From an uncultured Acidobacteriota bacterium (lineage in GTDB: Bacteria > Acidobacteriota > Thermoanaerobaculia > UBA5066 > Gp7-AA6), in assembly GCA_963829925.1 (NCBI GenBank), contig CAWHKQ010000005.1, forward strand, positions 24,164 through 88,163: a DNA stretch of 64,000 bases, in the 5' to 3' direction. Below the pieces are notes generated by a model. It was not told the DNA's origin, searched no databases, and saw only the letters and a list, made by a program, of their open reading frames with translations. Shown one piece after another: positions 6,557 to 15,228 of this stretch. A program made the position numbers and the translations under genes. The first letter of the stretch is position 1. Every line of letters begins with the position of its first letter.

Positions 6557-8299
6557 TCAGCGGCGCTTGAAGTACTTCTCCAGCTCTTCCTCCGACATCG
6601 AGAGAACCACGGGTCTCCCGTGCGGACACGTGAACCGGTCCTCCGTCTTCGACCAGTCCGCGATCAGGCGCCGGATCTCCTCCGGCGCCAGGTGGTACCG
6701 GATCGTGACCGCCGAGCGGCAGGCGATCGAGGCCGCGAGCCGGTTGCGCCGCTCCCCTTCTTCGACGGCCCCGGTGTCGGCCAGCGAGTCGAGCGCCATC
6801 CGCAGCGTCTCGGCCGGGTCTCTTCCCGTGGCCTCCGCCGGCAACGACGCGATCGCGTAGGAGCGGCCCGACATCGGCTCGATCTCGAACCCGGCCGCAA
6901 AGAGATCGTCGATGCGGGCCCCCAGGGTTTCGACTTCCTCCGGCGTCGCCTCGTAGAGCACCCGCATGAGGAGTCTCTGCGACATCACTCTTCCGGAAGC
7001 GATGCGGTCCCGGATCCGCTCGTAGAGCGTCCGCTCGTGCGCGGCGTGCTGGTCGATCACGAGGAGGCCCTCCGGCCCCGTGGCGAGGATGTAGGACTCG
7101 CGGTGCTGCCCGATCGGCAGGATCTCGGCGGGCCGCTTCTCGACCGGAGGCGGAGACGGTTCCGGCGTGCGGCTCACCGGACGGCGGCGAGGGCACGCCC
7201 ACGGGCGGACCCGGCGCCGGCGGCATGGCGAAGGGGTCCCGGTAGGGCGCCGAGGGTTCGGCCACGACGGACCCCGACGGCACCGAGCGCAGCCGCCGCT
7301 CCTCCTTGCCGGCCAGGAGCGCCGAGTTCAGCGCGTGGTAGACGAGCCGGAAGGCCGTTGCCGGCGTCGGCGAAGCGGACCTGCGTCTTGGCCGGTGAGA
7401 CGTTGACGTCCACGGCGCCGGGCTCGGCGGTCAGGAACAGGAAGACCGCGGGGTGGCGGTCGACCCGGATCGCGTCCTTCGACGCCTGGGAGATGGCCCG
7501 GGCGAGCGCCCGGTCCTCGATCGGCCGCCCGTTGACGAACAGATACTGGTACCGCCGGGTCGGAAACGTGATGGAGCCGCGGGTCGCATAGCCCGTCAGC
7601 CTGAGCGGTCCGGACCTGCGCCTCGAAGACCTCCAGCTCGCCGAGCGTCGCCTTGCCGAAGACCTGCAGGATGCGGGCGCCGCGGTCCACCGCCGGCCGG
7701 CGCCTCCAGGGTCTCGCGCGAGTTCGAGCGGAGCGAGAAGGCGACGGCCGGGTTGACCAGCGCGGCCCGGGTGACCGCGGCCGCCACCGCGCGCGCCTCG
7801 GCCTCCTTGGACGCCAGAAACTTGCGCCGGGCGGGTGTGCGCTCGAAGAGGCCCTGGACCAGCACGTCCGTGCCGCGCGGACGCGGGGCGGGCTCCTCCG
7901 CGACGGGCGCCCCGTATTCGAGGCTCAGCCGGATCGCCTCGGGGCTCGTGCCGTCGGAAGTCGTCAGCGTCAGTCGTCGAGACCGACGCGATCGAGGGAA
8001 GCGCCTCGCCGCGGAACCCGTAGGTTCCGACCTGCCGGAGATCTTCGTCGGAGGTGATCTTCGAGGTCGCGTGCCGCTCGAGCGACAGCCGCGCGTCCTC
8101 CGCCGACATGCCCCGAGCCGTCGTCGCGCACCAGGATCCGCTCGATCCCGCCGTTCTCGATCTCGACGTCGATCCGCGTCGCGCCGGCGTCGAGCGCGTT
8201 CTCGATGAGCTCCTTGACGGCCGAAGCCGGCCGCTCGACGACCTCGCCCGCGGCGATGCGGTCGATGACGGGACTCTCGAGACGATGGATCCGGGGCAT
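6557..8299 (-). CDS. mutL: DNA mismatch repair protein MutL (frameshifted)
   Basis: [59 protein letters not shown]. Confidence 0.95.
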
Positions 8300-8395: not shown

Positions 8396-11300
8396 GTGAC
8401 AAAGAAATTTGCGGCGGTGCTCCTGCTCCATCTGCTGTCGACTTTCGCCGCGGTCCACGCGCAGAACGGCCCGGACAACGATCCGGATGCGGCCCCGGGA
8501 TACACGAACAGCGTGTTCGACCACGGTCCGGCCGATTCGATCAACCTCTATAACGGTCAGCTCACGATCCCGATTGCGGTCGGCCCGTCCTACCCGATCG
8601 GCCCGAAGCTGCGCTTCCAGCTCTCGCTGGTCTACAGCTCTCGGGTCGACGACTACGGGGCGCCGAAGCCCGGGGCGCAACCGGGAATCCTGGACGGGTA
8701 CATCTACCGTCCGCTCGTCGGCAACTCCTCGCTCGGCATCGGATGGGAGCTCACGCTCGGAGCGATCAAGCCGTGCCGACATGGGATGACGGAGGCCGTC
8801 TGCTACTTCGGTCCCGACGGAAGTCAGCACATGTTCCACCGCGTGCGAGGCAACGGCAAGGTCACGGGCGACGGCAGCCAGCTCTTTCTCAAAGGCTCGG
8901 GCCCCTATGAGATGTGGGACGGCGACGGGAACCGCCACGTCTTCGACAAGCAGGCGAGCGGCTTCGACGACACGGCCGCCCAGGGTTACACCCACGACTT
9001 CGGACGGGGGCGTGACGGCTGGTACCTGGGGTCGCTGACGGATCCCCACGGCAACGGCTACAGCGTCTCCTACTGGACCGGAGGGCATCCTCGCTGGACG
9101 TACGGCGTGCCGACCTGCTCGCCGGCGGTCGCCGGGAACATGCAGATGGCCCCGCCCGCCGGCGTCGGCGGCTGGGTGCCGAAGGAGATCACCCTCCCCT
9201 CGGGCGACAAGGTTCGCGTCAATCGCGGACACAGCGGCTCCGTGGACGGCATGATCCTCTCCTTCGACTTCCCGGTTTTCGCGGCAGGCGCGGCCGGGAT
9301 GCGCACGTGGTCCCTCGCCTACGACACTCCTTACGCTTCCTACCTCCGGCCGTGCGGTCCGGGGACCTCGCTGCCGGTCAATCTGCAGCGCATCAAAGAG
9401 CTGCGGCTTCCGTCGGATCTCGCCGGCTCTCCGAAGTACCAATTCGCGCAGGAGAGTCTCCTGACCCGGCTGACGCTTCCGACGGGCGGCACGATCGAGT
9501 ACTGCTACAGCGAATACACCTTCCACCACGGCCGGGCGGGTTCGGTGACGCCCAACTGCCCGGGGCTGCCCGTCCCGTCAACCCAAACGACGGCGGTCAC
9601 ACCCAATGCGCTGTACTGCGACGGCTCCGGGCTCGCGCCGGAGCCGCGGCCCAACGCCCACGCACAGTGCACGGAGGACAACGAGGCGCGATGGATCGAC
9701 GTCCAGATGGGGGTCCTCCGGCGCACGGAGACCGAGCCCGTGCGGGGACGCGTGGCGACCACCACGTACACGCAGTACGCCTTCCCCTTCGGCGAGGCGG
9801 GCTCGGCCGGCTCTCCGGGAGAGCCCCAGACTTTGACCGTCGTCGTGTCTCCGCCGACCGATCAGAACGCCGCCGGAAGTGCCGGGCGCCGGCGCGCGAA
9901 GGCCACCCTCTTCCTCGCGAGTCCGAGGGTCGTTCAGCCTCCCGGCGGGCCGCGGCCGAGCGTGCCAGGCGACCGTGTCGGCGCCGACGTCGAGGAACGC
10001 GTCTTCGAGACCGATCCGAACCTCCTCAACCCCGGCTCGCCGGCCTGCCCTGGAACGGCGGCCGACGCGCCTTTCTGCGCGAGCAAGTCCGTCCGCACGG
10101 TCAAACGCACGTTCGACTACGACGATCCCGGCAACCTCGAAGGCAACCGTCGCGTGCAGTCGGAGAGGACGATCTTCGGCCCCGGGGCGTGCGGCAGCTG
10201 CGCGCACCACCAGGTGACTTTCACGAACTCCACGGCCGGCTGGGAAGACAACGGCCGCCACTACGAGAACGAAGTCCGTTCCGGCACCCTCGGGAACGAC
10301 GCGCGTACGACGTTCACGGACTGGGCGCCCGCACACTGGATGACCGGGCCGCCCCCTGGGGGGCGCGTGCTACCCAATCTGTTCGTGCAGCGCCGGACGA
10401 CCGACGGCACGTCGGTCCGCGACGAGCTGCTCGAACCGGACGCCGGCAGCGGATTCCTGAAGGGATCGGTCGTCTACGACGACGCCCGAAACCTCGCCTT
10501 CGTCCGCTGCCGCTACTCCGACGACAACGGAAATGTGGACAAGGAGTTCAGCAAGACGGTAGTCGCCGCGACCCGGCCCTCGCTCACGTACTGCTCCGAC
10601 AATCACGGGACGTTTCCGGCATCCGTCGGCCTCGACGGCGACACGTTCGGCAAGGACTACACGTGGCAGAACGGCGAGCTTCTCGGGGCGAGGTGGATCA
10701 ACGGCTCAACCGTCGCCCCCACCTTCCCGACACGCAGCTACGTGAGGAACCTCACGACCGGCTGGGTCCTGTCCTCCAGCGACACGTCGGGCCGGACGAC
10801 CGGCTATTCCTACGACGGCCTCGGGCGCGTCACGCAGATCTCACCCCCCGCTGTTGGAGAGCTGAAAACGTTCGTCTGCTACGAGGGGCCAAACGCCACG
10901 ACGGCGTACCGTGCGTCCTCGGCGCTGGCGTGCCCGGTCGCGGCCAGCCATCCCGGCGCAAAGACGTGGGAGCACTTCGACTACGACGGCCTTGGCCGGA
11001 AAATCCGCGAGAAGAGGCTCCTGCCCGGCGCGCAGGTGTCCAAGCGTTTCACTCTCCGGGATGGGGCGGGGAACGACTTCTTCGCCTCCGAATGGGTCGC
11101 CGATGCCACCCCCGAAACGATCGCCGCGGATCTGCCCACGGCCTGCGTCTTCTCGACCGGCAGCTTCGCCACGGCCCGCCCCTCGGCAGCGCCCGGCACC
11201 TATCGCCTGTGCTTCGATCCCTTCGGCCGTCCCCAACAGATGGTGGGCTCCAGGCACTCGAGCCTCGCGACCGTAGATCGCAAGGACGGTTCGGCCTGGT

Positions 11301-14167
11301 ACAGCGACACGCTGGAGTCCGCCCTGACCTATTGCGTCAACGGCAGCTTCACGAACCTCCAGGCGGCGACCTGCTCGGCAGGAGGGTTCAACGTCTCGAG
11401 AGCCTCTCGCCGAGACGCCTTTGGTCGGACGACGAGCGTCACGGAACCGACCGGCGAGACGACGAGCTACGTCTACGACGTCAACGCGAAGCTCACTCGG
11501 GTCACGCAGGGCTCCCAGACCCGGTCGTTTGCCTTCGACGCCGCCGGGATTCTGCGCTCGCAAACGACGCCGGAGGAGGGGACCGTCAGCTACGACCTGA
11601 TCGGGAGCCTCGGAAACGTGCGCCAGGAAAGACGCCCGGATGGACTCCTCGTCGCGCGAAAGTTCGACTTCGCCGGCCGGGTGGCGCAGGAGGACGCCGG
11701 CGGGCAGAAATACCTGGTCCAGTGCTTCGACGGCGCCGGAGTCTGCGTGGACGGGAGCCCCAACGCCGGAGGCGGCTCGTATCCGGCCGGAAAGATCACA
11801 CGGCGATACGGGTTCAACTACATCCCGACAGCCGCTGCTGTCGTCGATGACTCGTTCGAGTACGGTGACGCCGCGGGCCGGCTGACGAAGCTCACCACGA
11901 CCGCCGGCAACGGAGACCTCGGAACGTCGGTCTCTCAGACCTGGAGCTACGACGGCCTCGGTCTTCCGGCGGTGCACGGCCACCCGCGGGTGACCGGCGC
12001 GTTTCCCGTGTCGTTGACCTATTCGAACGCCCTTCCGACGGGAATCGCGGCGAGCACGGGCGGCCTCGTGACCGGGGCGAGTTATACACCGGCCGCCGGG
12101 CTCGCCTCCTGGACGGCCGGGAACTCCGGAGCGCCCGTCGTCACGGCGATCACGCCGGATCCGACCCTGCTTGCGCGCCCACAGAGCGTCTCCAATCCTC
12201 TCTGGTCGAGCGGGACCTACGCCTACGACGGGGAGGGCAACATCCTCAAGACGGGCGCCGACACGTTCACTTACGACTCGCGCTCGCGCCTTCTTTCGGC
12301 GAAGTTTGCCTCCAACCAGCGCAACTTCACTCACGACCGCTGGGGAAACCTCACGCAGAACGGAGGGACGACCTTCCAGATCGACGCCCTGACGAATCGA
12401 CTCAAGCCCGGCAACCCCGGCGCTCCCGCCTACGACGGCCGGGGGAATCTCACCGCGTGGAACGGAGACGTCATGGCCTACGACGCCCTGGACCGCCAGT
12501 ATCGGAATACCAACGCGGGCTCCGACTGGGTGTACCTCTTCAACGGCGCGGGCGAGCGGATCGTCAAGTTCCCGGCGAAGTTCGGCGTGCTCCGCCGCGA
12601 GATGGCTCGCTACCTCGCCGAAGCCAACGGAATCGCCAGGGGATGGGCGCTGCCCGGCTGCACGCCGACCTTTGCGGACGTCTCGTGCACCGATCCCGAC
12701 GCGCGCCAGATCCAGCTCGTGTACTCCAAAGGCGTGACCGGAGGCTGCAGCACCAATCCCCTCAAATACTGTCCAGATGCTCTTCTGACCCGCGCGCAGA
12801 TGGCTGTCTTCGTCGTCAAGGGTTATAAGCCCGATGGATTCGTTCCGCCCCCCTGCCAGGGCACGTTTCAGGATGTGTCGTGCTCCGGCCCCTACGCGCC
12901 CTTCGCGCCCTGGATCGAACAGCTCCGCCGGGACGGCGTGACCGCGGGTTGCAACGCCTCCCCGCTCCAGTTCTGCCCCGGGAATACCGTCGGCGAGTGG
13001 GAGATGCTCGTCTGGCTCGGCCGGGCCCCGGGGCCGAGTCCCGGAAACGCCTTCTGGTCCGCGTATCGCCCGGTCCCCCGCGGGGCGATCTACACGTGGC
13101 GCGACGAGCAGAACCGCGTCGTCACGGAGGCGGCGGGCGGAACGGCCGGCGCCGCGACCGCGAGCCTCTCTGTCGTGCGTGATAACGTTTTTTTAGGCAA
13201 TCTCCTCGTGGCCTCGTACGTCGCGTCCCCGGCCGGCTGGCAGTTCACGGCTTCCGACCACCTCGGCAGCCCGCGCGTCGTGTGGGACTCGCAGGGGCAG
13301 CTCGTCGAGTCCCACAAGCACTGGCCCTACGGCGAGGACACGAACCCGACCCCGCCTTCCCAGCGTCTCTCGTTCTGCCTGATGGAGCGCGACAACGAAT
13401 CCACCCGCTACTACGACCACGCCCGCACGCACGACCTCGGCCTCGGCCGGTTCCTGTCTCCGGACCGGATCGGCGGCAAACCCGCGGATCCCCAGTCCTG
13501 GAATCGATACGCCTACGCACTCAACAACCCGATGAAGCACATCGATCCGGATGGCCTGCTCACGATCGTGGTGCACGGAACGTATGCTTCGGACAGCCCC
13601 AGCTTCAAAGCCGGAGGCATGGTCTACGAGCAGAGCAAAGCTCTATTCCGCGATCCGAACACCGTGTCTTTCAAATGGTCAGGCGGAAATACGGGCTGGC
13701 AAAGACAACAGGCGGCCGCGGAACTCGGTAAGCTGATCGCAAGTTACAAGTTCGCTCCGGGCGAAAAGCTGAACATCGTCGCACATAGTCACGGCGGCAA
13801 TGTTGTCGTCCCGGCAGCGAACGCGTTGCAGGGACGGTCCGTAGACAATCTCATCACCTTCGGCACTCCGGTTCGCCTGGGGAGCGGACTCGAGCGGACC
13901 ACAAATGTCAACACGTTCATTGCGGTGTCCAATACAGCGGACCTCGTGCAGGTTGCGGGTGGCCTGATGGGTCTTGTTCCGTTCATCGGAGAGTACGGCA
14001 TCGCGGGGCGTGAACAGCCAGGCGCAATCAACGTGCGCATCACGGATGGATCGTCACCGTTCGGCGCTCATTCCGGTGTCTACAAATCCGAGGCAACCTG
14101 GAGGCTTCTCAGCGGTCTCATCGATACGGTCGTGAAACCCATTGAGATCGTGGAGGTTCCGAACTGA
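8396..14167 (+). CDS. Secreted Rhs/YD-repeat polymorphic toxin with internal SLH-like repeats and C-terminal alpha/beta-hydrolase domain
   Basis: Intact 1923-aa ORF after RBS GAGGAGG; N-terminal signal peptide (AVHA/Q); YD repeats (YDGLGRV, YDVNAKL, YDSRSRL); core GRFLSPD...NRYAYALNNPMKHIDPDG; FADV..TRAQMA SLH-like repeats; tip with VHG and AHSHGG. Confidence 0.92.
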   Translation: MTKKFAAVLLLHLLSTFAAVHAQNGPDNDPDAAPGYTNSVFDHGPADSINLYNGQLTIPIAVGPSYPIGPKLRFQLSLVYSSRVDDYGAPKPGAQPGILDGYIYRPLVGNSSLGIGWELTLGAIKPCRHGMTEAVCYFGPDGSQHMFHRVRGNGKVTGDGSQLFLKGSGPYEMWDGDGNRHVFDKQASGFDDTAAQGYTHDFGRGRDGWYLGSLTDPHGNGYSVSYWTGGHPRWTYGVPTCSPAVAGNMQMAPPAGVGGWVPKEITLPSGDKVRVNRGHSGSVDGMILSFDFPVFAAGAAGMRTWSLAYDTPYASYLRPCGPGTSLPVNLQRIKELRLPSDLAGSPKYQFAQESLLTRLTLPTGGTIEYCYSEYTFHHGRAGSVTPNCPGLPVPSTQTTAVTPNALYCDGSGLAPEPRPNAHAQCTEDNEARWIDVQMGVLRRTETEPVRGRVATTTYTQYAFPFGEAGSAGSPGEPQTLTVVVSPPTDQNAAGSAGRRRAKATLFLASPRVVQPPGGPRPSVPGDRVGADVEERVFETDPNLLNPGSPACPGTAADAPFCASKSVRTVKRTFDYDDPGNLEGNRRVQSERTIFGPGACGSCAHHQVTFTNSTAGWEDNGRHYENEVRSGTLGNDARTTFTDWAPAHWMTGPPPGGRVLPNLFVQRRTTDGTSVRDELLEPDAGSGFLKGSVVYDDARNLAFVRCRYSDDNGNVDKEFSKTVVAATRPSLTYCSDNHGTFPASVGLDGDTFGKDYTWQNGELLGARWINGSTVAPTFPTRSYVRNLTTGWVLSSSDTSGRTTGYSYDGLGRVTQISPPAVGELKTFVCYEGPNATTAYRASSALACPVAASHPGAKTWEHFDYDGLGRKIREKRLLPGAQVSKRFTLRDGAGNDFFASEWVADATPETIAADLPTACVFSTGSFATARPSAAPGTYRLCFDPFGRPQQMVGSRHSSLATVDRKDGSAWYSDTLESALTYCVNGSFTNLQAATCSAGGFNVSRASRRDAFGRTTSVTEPTGETTSYVYDVNAKLTRVTQGSQTRSFAFDAAGILRSQTTPEEGTVSYDLIGSLGNVRQERRPDGLLVARKFDFAGRVAQEDAGGQKYLVQCFDGAGVCVDGSPNAGGGSYPAGKITRRYGFNYIPTAAAVVDDSFEYGDAAGRLTKLTTTAGNGDLGTSVSQTWSYDGLGLPAVHGHPRVTGAFPVSLTYSNALPTGIAASTGGLVTGASYTPAAGLASWTAGNSGAPVVTAITPDPTLLARPQSVSNPLWSSGTYAYDGEGNILKTGADTFTYDSRSRLLSAKFASNQRNFTHDRWGNLTQNGGTTFQIDALTNRLKPGNPGAPAYDGRGNLTAWNGDVMAYDALDRQYRNTNAGSDWVYLFNGAGERIVKFPAKFGVLRREMARYLAEANGIARGWALPGCTPTFADVSCTDPDARQIQLVYSKGVTGGCSTNPLKYCPDALLTRAQMAVFVVKGYKPDGFVPPPCQGTFQDVSCSGPYAPFAPWIEQLRRDGVTAGCNASPLQFCPGNTVGEWEMLVWLGRAPGPSPGNAFWSAYRPVPRGAIYTWRDEQNRVVTEAAGGTAGAATASLSVVRDNVFLGNLLVASYVASPAGWQFTASDHLGSPRVVWDSQGQLVESHKHWPYGEDTNPTPPSQRLSFCLMERDNESTRYYDHARTHDLGLGRFLSPDRIGGKPADPQSWNRYAYALNNPMKHIDPDGLLTIVVHGTYASDSPSFKAGGMVYEQSKALFRDPNTVSFKWSGGNTGWQRQQAAAELGKLIASYKFAPGEKLNIVAHSHGGNVVVPAANALQGRSVDNLITFGTPVRLGSGLERTTNVNTFIAVSNTADLVQVAGGLMGLVPFIGEYGIAGREQPGAINVRITDGSSPFGAHSGVYKSEATWRLLSGLIDTVVKPIEIVEVPN

Positions 14168-14615: not shown

Positions 14616-14851
14616 TGCGAATCGTAAAGGTCCACGAAGCCAAGACGCATCTCTCCCGGTTGCTCGAGCGAGTCGAGAAGGGCGAAGAAATCCTGATCGC
14701 GCGCGGCAGGGTTCCCGTAGCCCGACTCGTGCCGGTCACCGCTCAGCCGCGCCGGCCCGGGCGGCTGAAGGGGAGGATCCGGGTCGGGCGGGCGTTCGAC
14801 AAACCTCTTCCCACGGATTTGCTCGCGGCGTTCCGAGGCGAACGGGGTTGA
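14615..14851 (+). CDS. Phd/YefM family antitoxin
   Basis: VKVHEAKTHLSRLLERVEKGEEILIAR..PVARLVP. Confidence 0.92.
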   Translation: MRIVKVHEAKTHLSRLLERVEKGEEILIARGRVPVARLVPVTAQPRRPGRLKGRIRVGRAFDKPLPTDLLAAFRGERG

Positions 14852-15228
14852 GGCTCCTCCTCGACACGCACGCCTTTCTCTGGTGGCTGCAGGACAGCCC
14901 TCGCCTGGGACGTGAGGCACGCCGCGCGATGTCAGACATGCAATCGATCATCCACGTCAGCGCCGCGAGCGTCTGGGAACTCGCCATCAAGACGGCCCTG
15001 GGGAGGCTCCACGTCGACGGGGCCGACATTCCGGACGAGATCGCGGCCAATGGGTTCGTCGAGCTCCCGGTCGGCTCGCGGCATGCGTGGCACGCGGGGG
15101 GACTGCCCCGGCACCATGACGACCCGTTCGACCGAATATTGATCGCCCAGGCTCAGCTCGAGGAATTGACGCTCGTCACCCACGATCCCGCCTTCGGGAA
15201 GTACAAAGTCCCGCTCCTGTCGGCCTGA
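14848..15228 (+). CDS. vapC: PIN-domain VapC toxin
   Basis: LLLDTHAFLW, SAASVWELAIK, HHDDPFDRILIAQA, LVTHD; 4-nt overlap with antitoxin. Confidence 0.92.
   Translation: MRLLLDTHAFLWWLQDSPRLGREARRAMSDMQSIIHVSAASVWELAIKTALGRLHVDGADIPDEIAANGFVELPVGSRHAWHAGGLPRHHDDPFDRILIAQAQLEELTLVTHDPAFGKYKVPLLSA

Follow-up and report, generated by a model that had tools for sequence, protein, structure and literature searches.

An SLH-type module inserted into a YD hairpin of an acidobacterial Rhs toxin

The insertion in the YD shell

Here, we describe an insertion in the shell of a polymorphic toxin encoded in a stretch of 64,000 nucleotides (the window; G+C content 69%) from an uncultured Acidobacteriota bacterium of the class Thermoanaerobaculia (assembly GCA_963829925.1, contig CAWHKQ010000005.1, positions 24,164 to 88,163). 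The open reading frame (ORF) 8396..14167 on the plus strand specifies P0001, a Rhs/YD polymorphic toxin of 1923 amino acids (aa) that matches PF05593 RHS_repeat (E 4.6e-20), TIGR01643 YD_repeat (E 6.5e-17) and TIGR03696 Rhs_assc_core. Its shell is interrupted at aa 1392-1564 (12569..13087, +) by 173 aa of surface-layer homology (SLH) type. An original prediction had claimed an SLH-like, partly truncated module of about 170 aa at this place, in a hairpin of the YD shell. All strings that it quoted lie in frame in the ORF, LRREMARYL at aa 1399-1407, CTPTFADVSC at 1422-1431, LTRAQMAVF at 1464-1472, CQGTFQDVSC at 1487-1496 and EWEMLVW at 1534-1540. The predicted length proved right, whereas the exact bounds of 12570-13085 did not hold and are replaced by those given above.

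The new bounds were taken from insert-less homologues. When aa 1200-1725 of P0001 were searched against a collection of 5.8 billion proteins, 322 homologues were found at E≤1e-10, and the 120 listed among them were each scored with three queries comprising the pre-insert, insert and post-insert parts. The source names of the listed homologues, where given, denote proteins from Thermoanaerobaculia or Acidobacteriota metagenome-assembled genomes. Of these 120 relatives, 91 (P0001 counted in) contain an insert of 157-185 aa at this very site, and the flanks are joined by -3 to 11 aa in another 27. The two others are P0257, in which the site is occupied by an unrelated insert of 138 aa, and P0265, which has none there. 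Alignment with the insert-less forms mapped both boundaries. On the N-terminal side, the interrupted hairpin ends with the strand WVYLFNGAGERIVK (aa 1378-1391; 12527..12568, +), which aligns with the W.YLY.G.GER..K segment of insert-less homologues, and on the C-terminal side it resumes with IYTWRDEQNRVVTE (aa 1565-1578; 13088..13129, +), which aligns with their YTYRDE.NRV.TE segment. In insert-less proteins the two strands are connected by a short turn, as in WRYLYGGAGERVAKVAGGGTPQYTYRDE, and the 173 residues are therefore a replacement of one YD hairpin turn, in agreement with what had been predicted. The site lies about 80 residues N-terminal to the Rhs core. In the structural model described below, the flanking strands are formed by model residues 2-7 and 11-15 on the N-terminal side and 188-192 and 198-200 on the C-terminal side.

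The same join between Rhs shell and insert was found in protein clusters originating from NCBI, ENA, JGI and Logan. We also surveyed 201 sampled genomes of the class for contiguous flank-insert-flank matches. Among 13 further genomes of the host genus, 12 had them, in a tally that takes in the unpublished genome G104, on which no claim depends. Further matches came from a different genus of the same family (G068) and from a different family of the same order (G100). Insert-less Rhs forms were encountered in genomes G036, G076, G120, G160 and again G068. A chimeric join, the artefact with which the original prediction had reckoned, is thus excluded. Given the short turn of the insert-less homologues, aa 1392-1564 are a genuine insertion rather than a pattern that arose by chance. 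With a mean pairwise identity of 0.526, compared to 0.518-0.564 for the shell, the insert is as conserved as its surroundings, i.e. its sequence points to maintenance under constraint.

The shell of related proteins accommodates other modules as well. The 138-aa insert of P0257 (aa ~1377-1516, beginning with YFTLAPCRFFDTRRP) is beta-rich and occupies the same YD hairpin; it matched no Pfam family and, in the ESM Atlas, hit unnamed clusters alone at 0.82, below lead level. This protein suggests that the hairpin turn is an insertion hot spot. P0265 contains a complete three-unit SLH insert at aa ~1065-1260 with three FxDV motifs and three GC..CP loops (PF00395, 33.4 bits), and its site, equivalent to aa ~1197-1203 of the window protein, is a different one. 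This looks like an independent insertion, by which the shell would have gained SLH modules at least twice. The modules of P0265 and P0257 support the view that hairpin turns are permissive display sites. In another genome of the same genus, one long Rhs frame is followed by at least five shorter frames of 196-771 aa (G164:C6:313771-328305). Three of these shorter frames begin anew ahead of the insert and extend across it as far as the core. The arrangement looks like an array of orphan C-terminal modules, with the SLH insert contained in the repeated homology block.

SLH homology, predicted fold and ligand pocket

The SLH domain is defined by Pfam PF00395 and PROSITE PS51272. The PF00395 cut-off of 20.8 bits serves as an operational threshold and is not a structural feature. 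A PF00395 search on the insert, put forward as a check of the original prediction, failed for the copy in the window, as no match was obtained at E≤1. Among 11 scanned Rhs-type relatives, PF00395 was detected within the insert in six. Four of these exceed the cut-off (P0010 with 30.7, P0013 with 27.1, P0012 with 23.5 and P0022 with 21.4 bits), and P0009 (19.5 bits) and P0024 (20.2 bits) stay just below it.

When the insert was compared by phmmer with 1.84 billion representative sequences, 12,495 proteins were retrieved at E≤1e-3. Matches to PF00395-positive proteins reach an E value of 1.9e-105, and all 12 scanned non-Rhs proteins among the top matches (down to E 1.2e-48) were PF00395-positive. 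In a tblastn search of the entire Rhs protein against its own genome, 90 matches were obtained, consisting of the gene itself and 89 others that all fall within aa 1382-1555. These 89 SLH paralogue matches share 34-60% identity with the insert (best E 6.3e-27), and many of their loci coincide with loci from the PF00395 scan of the genome. A profile built from 25 Rhs inserts alone matched solved SLH structures upon searching PDB sequences, i.e. Sap 9g93 (E 1.7e-14), 3pyw (3.5e-14), 6bt4 (1e-13) and SbsB 4aq1 (4.7e-11); three more SLH entries were also matched. The GC..CP loop of the insert recurs in SLH units of the lineage; a metalloprotease-like ORF (L005), for example, has it in each of its three C-terminal units. 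All tests more sensitive than the Pfam and NCBIfam searches agree, and judged by these sequence comparisons together with the model below, the insert is homologous to SLH domains, as originally proposed. When the single insert sequence was run by phmmer against the PDB, only fatty acid synthase was hit, with E values of 0.0036-0.39, and these matches were regarded as chance.

The fold was predicted with AlphaFold2 for aa 1378-1578 on the basis of an alignment of 25 Rhs inserts. The resulting model of insert plus flanks has a mean predicted local distance difference test (pLDDT) score of 89.5 and a predicted template modelling (pTM) score of 0.83 and contains five helices in the expected order. 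In a Foldseek search with this model, the 14 listed matches through rank 15 were all SLH trimers, and the next match had an E value of 0.28. The best match was 6bt4 (E 3.6e-6, template modelling score 0.69). With VIA-align, the predicted model gave Z scores of 14.7-16.0 against SLH trimers of Sap and SpaA, with 16.0 for 6bt4 (root-mean-square deviation 2.9 Å, 149 of 165 residues) and 15.7 for SpaA-SLH 6cwc. Structure prediction thus bears out the SLH assignment, with the three-pronged spindle fold in which a parallel three-helix core bears lobes.

In terms of anatomy, the insert comprises two FxDV/GxxxG lobes plus one extra core helix and not three complete tandem units; accordingly, the model has five helices instead of the six of three full units. 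The first element, h0 (aa 1400-1414; 12593..12637, +; model helix 23-37), is the core helix that remains of a first, truncated SLH unit; in it, LRRE, with R1400, is equivalent to TRAE. Both in SbsB and in paralogues from the same genome (matches start at aa 1392-1399), h0 aligns with the last helix of the unit before, and it is the most conserved segment of the insert, with a mean pairwise identity of 0.68 and R1401 present in 76 of 77 insert-bearing rows. The "partial helix" of the original prediction turned out to be just this TRAE-type core helix of a unit without its first half, and the notion of a partly truncated set has therefore held up. Unit 1 (aa 1422-1477; 12659..12826, +), which aligns with Sap SLH2, consists of C..FADV.C, a lobe helix (aa 1436-1444, model 59-67), the GVTGGC..YCP loop and the LTRAQ core helix (aa 1466-1477, model 89-100). 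Unit 2 (aa 1487-1543; 12854..13024, +) aligns with Sap SLH3 and is composed of C..FQDV.C, a lobe helix with W1506 (aa 1504-1512, model 127-135), the GVTAGC..FCP loop and the GEWE core helix (aa 1534-1543, model 157-166). The last segment, a conserved return linker (aa 1544-1564; 13025..13087, +) with W1554, Y1557, P1561, R1562 and G1563, is modelled with pLDDT values of ~83-89 and would bring the chain back to the hairpin. Taken at the level of sequence and model, the insert is an SLH pseudo-trimer that has been cut out of register and has three core helices and two lobes.

The insert has eight Cys residues, and 62 of 76 rows have kept all of them. The few losses are partly paired, at 1451 and 1459 in two rows, at 1422 and 1431 plus 1496 in four rows and at 1487 and 1496 in one row. 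The residues may form disulfides, with 1422-1431, 1451-1459, 1487-1496 and 1519-1527 as candidate pairs; loss events are too few for covariation to prove their pairing. Among the 139 nearest non-Rhs SLH proteins, the GC..CP pair is universal and the C..FxDVxC pair is present in 17.

A candidate ligand pocket was then mapped by sequence. In the SLH domain of SpaA, each SLH unit supplies one helix of the three-helix core, and all three units contribute to the ligand pocket, SLH1 with SLH-Arg43, SLH2 with the SLH-Gly29 loop and SLH3 with SLH-Trp13 (Blackler et al., 2018; PMC6081394). We applied this Arg(i)/Gly(i+1)/Trp(i+2) scheme to the insert and counted conservation over the 77 insert-bearing alignment rows, one of which is P0257 with its unrelated insert. 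R1400 of h0 is conserved in 76 rows, G1450 of unit 1 in all 77 and an aromatic residue at position 1506 of unit 2 in 74 (W33/Y26/F15). To the extent that the scheme can be transferred, R1400, G1450 and W1506 make up one complete predicted pocket. A second predicted pocket would be formed by R1466 (75 of 77 rows) and G1518 (74 of 77) and is without an aromatic platform, which the missing lobe 1 would have supplied. As for the third pocket, it is lost because GEWE replaces TRAE in unit 2 and because lobe 1 would have provided the Gly loop. Position 1534 is occupied by E45/P13/H8, and Arg is not among the three commonest residues. Conserved residues hence track the one complete predicted pocket, and residues of the lost pocket have decayed. 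The geometry of the pocket is deduced from sequence and should be read as a prediction.

Toxin-immunity pair, export and host envelope

The remaining features of P0001 would fit an exported polymorphic toxin. Its first 22 residues (...FAAVHA/QNG; 8396..8461, +), assessed by eye from the translation and with no predictor, exhibit a basic start, a hydrophobic core and an AxA-like site and contain no lipobox Cys, such that a Sec signal peptide is predicted; the N-termini of relatives resemble it. The Rhs-associated core spans aa 1644-1721 (13325..13558, +; TIGR03696, E 1e-14) and ends with the DPDGL motif, which is evident in the translation. It is followed by a C-terminal toxin domain (aa 1726-1923; 13571..14164, +), for which weak matches indicate a small, lipase-like alpha/beta-hydrolase. 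DUF7379 and PGAP1-like families are hit weakly, lipases of the Bacillus subtilis LipA type appear at E 0.12, and the AHSHGG sequence is a nucleophile-elbow motif with a likeness, again from weak matches, to minimal lipases. A weak PGAP1-like C-terminal match was also noted on the insert-less shell of P0237 and on the alternative-insert shell of P0257. In general, C-terminal families vary among relatives of P0001 and include, by Pfam annotation, HNH and restriction endonuclease types.

The start codon of the downstream ORF P0266 (14167..14496, +) overlaps the stop codon of the Rhs gene by one nucleotide. The encoded hydrophobic protein of 109 aa is a putative immunity protein. It matched no Pfam family, and a homologue (38% identity, E 1.2e-16) is located downstream of the same toxin type in another genome of the genus (L011). 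The C-terminal domain of P0001 and P0266 thus probably fit a toxin-immunity pair. By tblastn, a second Rhs gene was not found in the own genome, which is 57% complete.

No secretion-system genes occur among the scanned neighbours, which are housekeeping genes and encode a MutL fragment, LiaF-like, PIN and amidohydrolase proteins, PPDK, GlyQ and RecO. The sheath component TssC/VipB (PF05943) of type VI secretion systems (T6SS) was not found in the own genome (57% complete) or in genomes G024, G032 and G184, which are 92-98% complete. With its Sec-type N-terminus and no T6SS genes among the scanned neighbours, P0001 also departs from PAAR/VgrG-linked T6SS effectors. We infer that this Rhs toxin is probably T6SS-independent.

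The own genome (G000) amounts to 3.8 Mb in 16 contigs and yields 87 PF00395 matches at E≤0.01. It encodes a CsaB-like pyruvyl transferase domain (G000:C13:151868-152833, L009) that reaches 197.6 bits with TIGR03609 (cut-off 213.1) and an E value of 1.8e-37 with PF04230. The domain is situated 3-10 kb from SLH genes, which form clusters on this contig, and resides together with a GT2 glycosyltransferase domain in one ORF of more than 826 aa. LptD was found as well, which identifies the host as a diderm with lipopolysaccharide (LPS).

A census of the family revealed PF00395 matches in 17 of 41 genomes, with 1 to 127 matches each. All SLH-bearing genomes have at least 23 except G208 with one and G206 with nine; the latter is unpublished, and the claim stands without it. 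SLH repertoires are near all-or-none per genome and patchy within genera g3, g4 and g6. Such a distribution suggests that the SLH anchoring system has been gained or lost as a whole. The seven genomes with a full insert-bearing Rhs gene that are covered by both surveys (G024, G032, G056, G084, G092, G128 and G068) are all SLH-rich, with 24-127 matches, and SLH-rich G064 contains insert-bearing Rhs fragments. In the SLH-null genomes G036, G120 and G028, the Rhs matches are all insert-less. PF04230 is present in G024, G032 and G028 and absent from G036 and G120.

Role of the module and comparison with known systems

We propose, with somewhat better than even confidence, that the SLH module keeps an exported Rhs cage on the envelope of the producing cell by binding an envelope glycan. 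The insert would have been copied out of register from the large pool of Cys-bearing SLH repeats of the lineage, and a late YD hairpin of the shell would have received it in its turn region. The toxin would be exported by Sec, and the module would probably be displayed on the outer face of the cage. There, its single intact predicted pocket might bind the type of pyruvylated envelope polysaccharide to which other SLH proteins of the organism are attached, and the loaded toxin cage would thereby be retained on the envelope of the producer. Since kin share the polymer, the cage could potentially also be held on kin target cells.

Several findings weigh against this proposal. No Pfam or NCBIfam family was matched by the 173-aa insert of P0001 at E≤1, and the insert is not among the 87 places detected by the PF00395 scan of its own genome at E≤0.01. 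One of the three lobes of a full module is absent, such that binding competence is not assured, and where unit 1 would have its Trp13 equivalent, the window copy has Gln. The ligand of an LPS diderm could be either a peptidoglycan-linked periplasmic polymer or a surface glycan. Furthermore, SLH-rich G076 was seen to contain insert-less Rhs alone, and SLH-null G028 possesses a pyruvyl transferase. The co-occurrence of insert and SLH repertoire is suggestive and not statistical, because the genomes are kin and the counts are not independent.

With the same biochemistry, the module could instead be a receptor-binding device that attaches to the envelope polymer of competitors and decides which cells a released, diffusible Rhs cage can target. 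We regard this as possible but rather doubtful. A Sec signal alone, no nearby secretion genes and no T6SS sheath gene mean that some targeting device is needed, and some relatives have C-terminal toxins of nuclease-type families, which need to reach the interior of bacterial cells. The module of P0257 in the same hairpin and the SLH trimer of P0265 in another are as expected of swappable targeting modules. However, insert-bearing Rhs genes were seen only in SLH-rich genomes, a pattern most simply explained by a ligand that belongs to the producer itself, and a peptidoglycan-linked ligand in a diderm target would be hidden behind the outer membrane. If the targets are kin, retention on the producer and receptor binding are inseparable by these data. 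A further, more speculative idea, which we advance tentatively, starts from the single-pocket SLH module at this hairpin, the unrelated module of P0257 and the complete SLH trimer of P0265: in a lineage that would deliver Rhs toxins without a T6SS, hairpin turns may be display sockets for interchangeable envelope-targeting modules, and the SLH insert may be the receptor-binding device that lets the cage dock on pyruvylated envelope polymer of competing kin and thereby determines the victims. If this is true, the insert represents a natural minimal SLH fold and shows that binding can do without one of the three lobes.

It appears improbable that the insert is a structural decoration without ligand binding, whether it stabilises the shell, mediates oligomerisation or offers homology for recombination with orphan C-terminal modules. 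One lobe is absent, the third TRAE is lost and the window copy fails PF00395, all of which would suit such a role, as would the repeated C-terminal fragments of the G164:C6 array, several of which include the insert region. It fits poorly, however, with the selective conservation of one pocket, in that the near-invariant residues are those of the one complete predicted pocket and those of the lost pocket have decayed, and with the apparent insertion of SLH modules into the shell on at least two occasions (P0265). An assembly or annotation chimera of an SLH gene with a Rhs gene, conceivable for an incomplete source assembly (57%, 16 contigs), can be discarded for practical purposes because the same join recurs across the different sources of the 91 listed clusters and in the 12 same-genus genomes, some of which have 2-6 contigs, and because the frame is open across both joins.

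The module and its toxin can be compared with established systems. The insert shares its profile, predicted fold, three-helix core and the FxDV, GxxxG and TRAE/TRAQ-type motifs with the SLH trimers of B. anthracis Sap (3pyw/6bt4) and P. alvei SpaA (6cwc). In contrast to these trimers, which consist of three full units and sit at the end of S-layer proteins, it has two lobes plus a third core helix and is internal to another domain. It also differs from S-layer SLH domains by the extra GC..CP pair in the Gly29 loop, the C..FxDVxC pair, GEWE in place of the third TRAE and its LPS-diderm host.

In the usual view, Rhs cages are closed shells, and N-terminal adaptors such as PAAR/VgrG, TcA or wall-binding repeats govern their delivery. 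WapA of Bacillus subtilis is a T6SS-independent, Sec-exported Rhs/YD toxin that is bound to the wall and acts in contact-dependent competition; its wall-binding repeats are N-terminal and not of the SLH type, and its host is monoderm. P0001 resembles WapA as a predicted T6SS-independent, Sec-exported Rhs/YD toxin and differs from it by the internal SLH module and the diderm host. The YD shells of TcB/TcC and teneurins carry extra domains (beta-propeller, FN-plug) that close or plug the shell. They are a precedent for YD shells with additional folded domains, but theirs are not carbohydrate-binding SLH modules. YD-shell toxins with surface anchors that include SLH domains have, like P0001, a Sec-exported YD shell and an anchoring module. 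They are described as Gram-positive proteins with N-terminal anchors, although an internal case may exist among them, whereas here the SLH module occupies a hairpin turn of a diderm Rhs protein.

A full-text literature search, with most subscription journals outside its scope, retrieved no description of an SLH module inside a Rhs shell. SLH trimers, Rhs toxins and wall anchoring of YD-shell toxins by N-terminal modules are already known; what is new is that the module lies within a hairpin of the shell, that it has been trimmed to two lobes and that its host is a diderm acidobacterium. A Rhs shell evidently tolerates a folded domain of 19 kDa in a hairpin turn, and constraint appears to maintain this arrangement across the genus and beyond, in 91 of the 120 listed clusters. 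The insert would provide a natural two-lobed SLH module with one intact predicted pocket and the hairpin a permissive site for engineered displays on Rhs shells. A testable idea also emerges for diderm Acidobacteriota, namely that modules of this kind may hold their Sec-exported, T6SS-independent Rhs toxins on cell envelopes or aim them at these.

Two neighbouring frames are finally mentioned. A gene for a PIN-domain (VapC-like) protein is situated just 3' of the Rhs-immunity pair (14848-15228, +; PF01850, E 2.2e-16), and on the minus strand, an ORF of 206 aa at 6557-7177 has the C-terminal dimerisation domain of MutL as its sole match.

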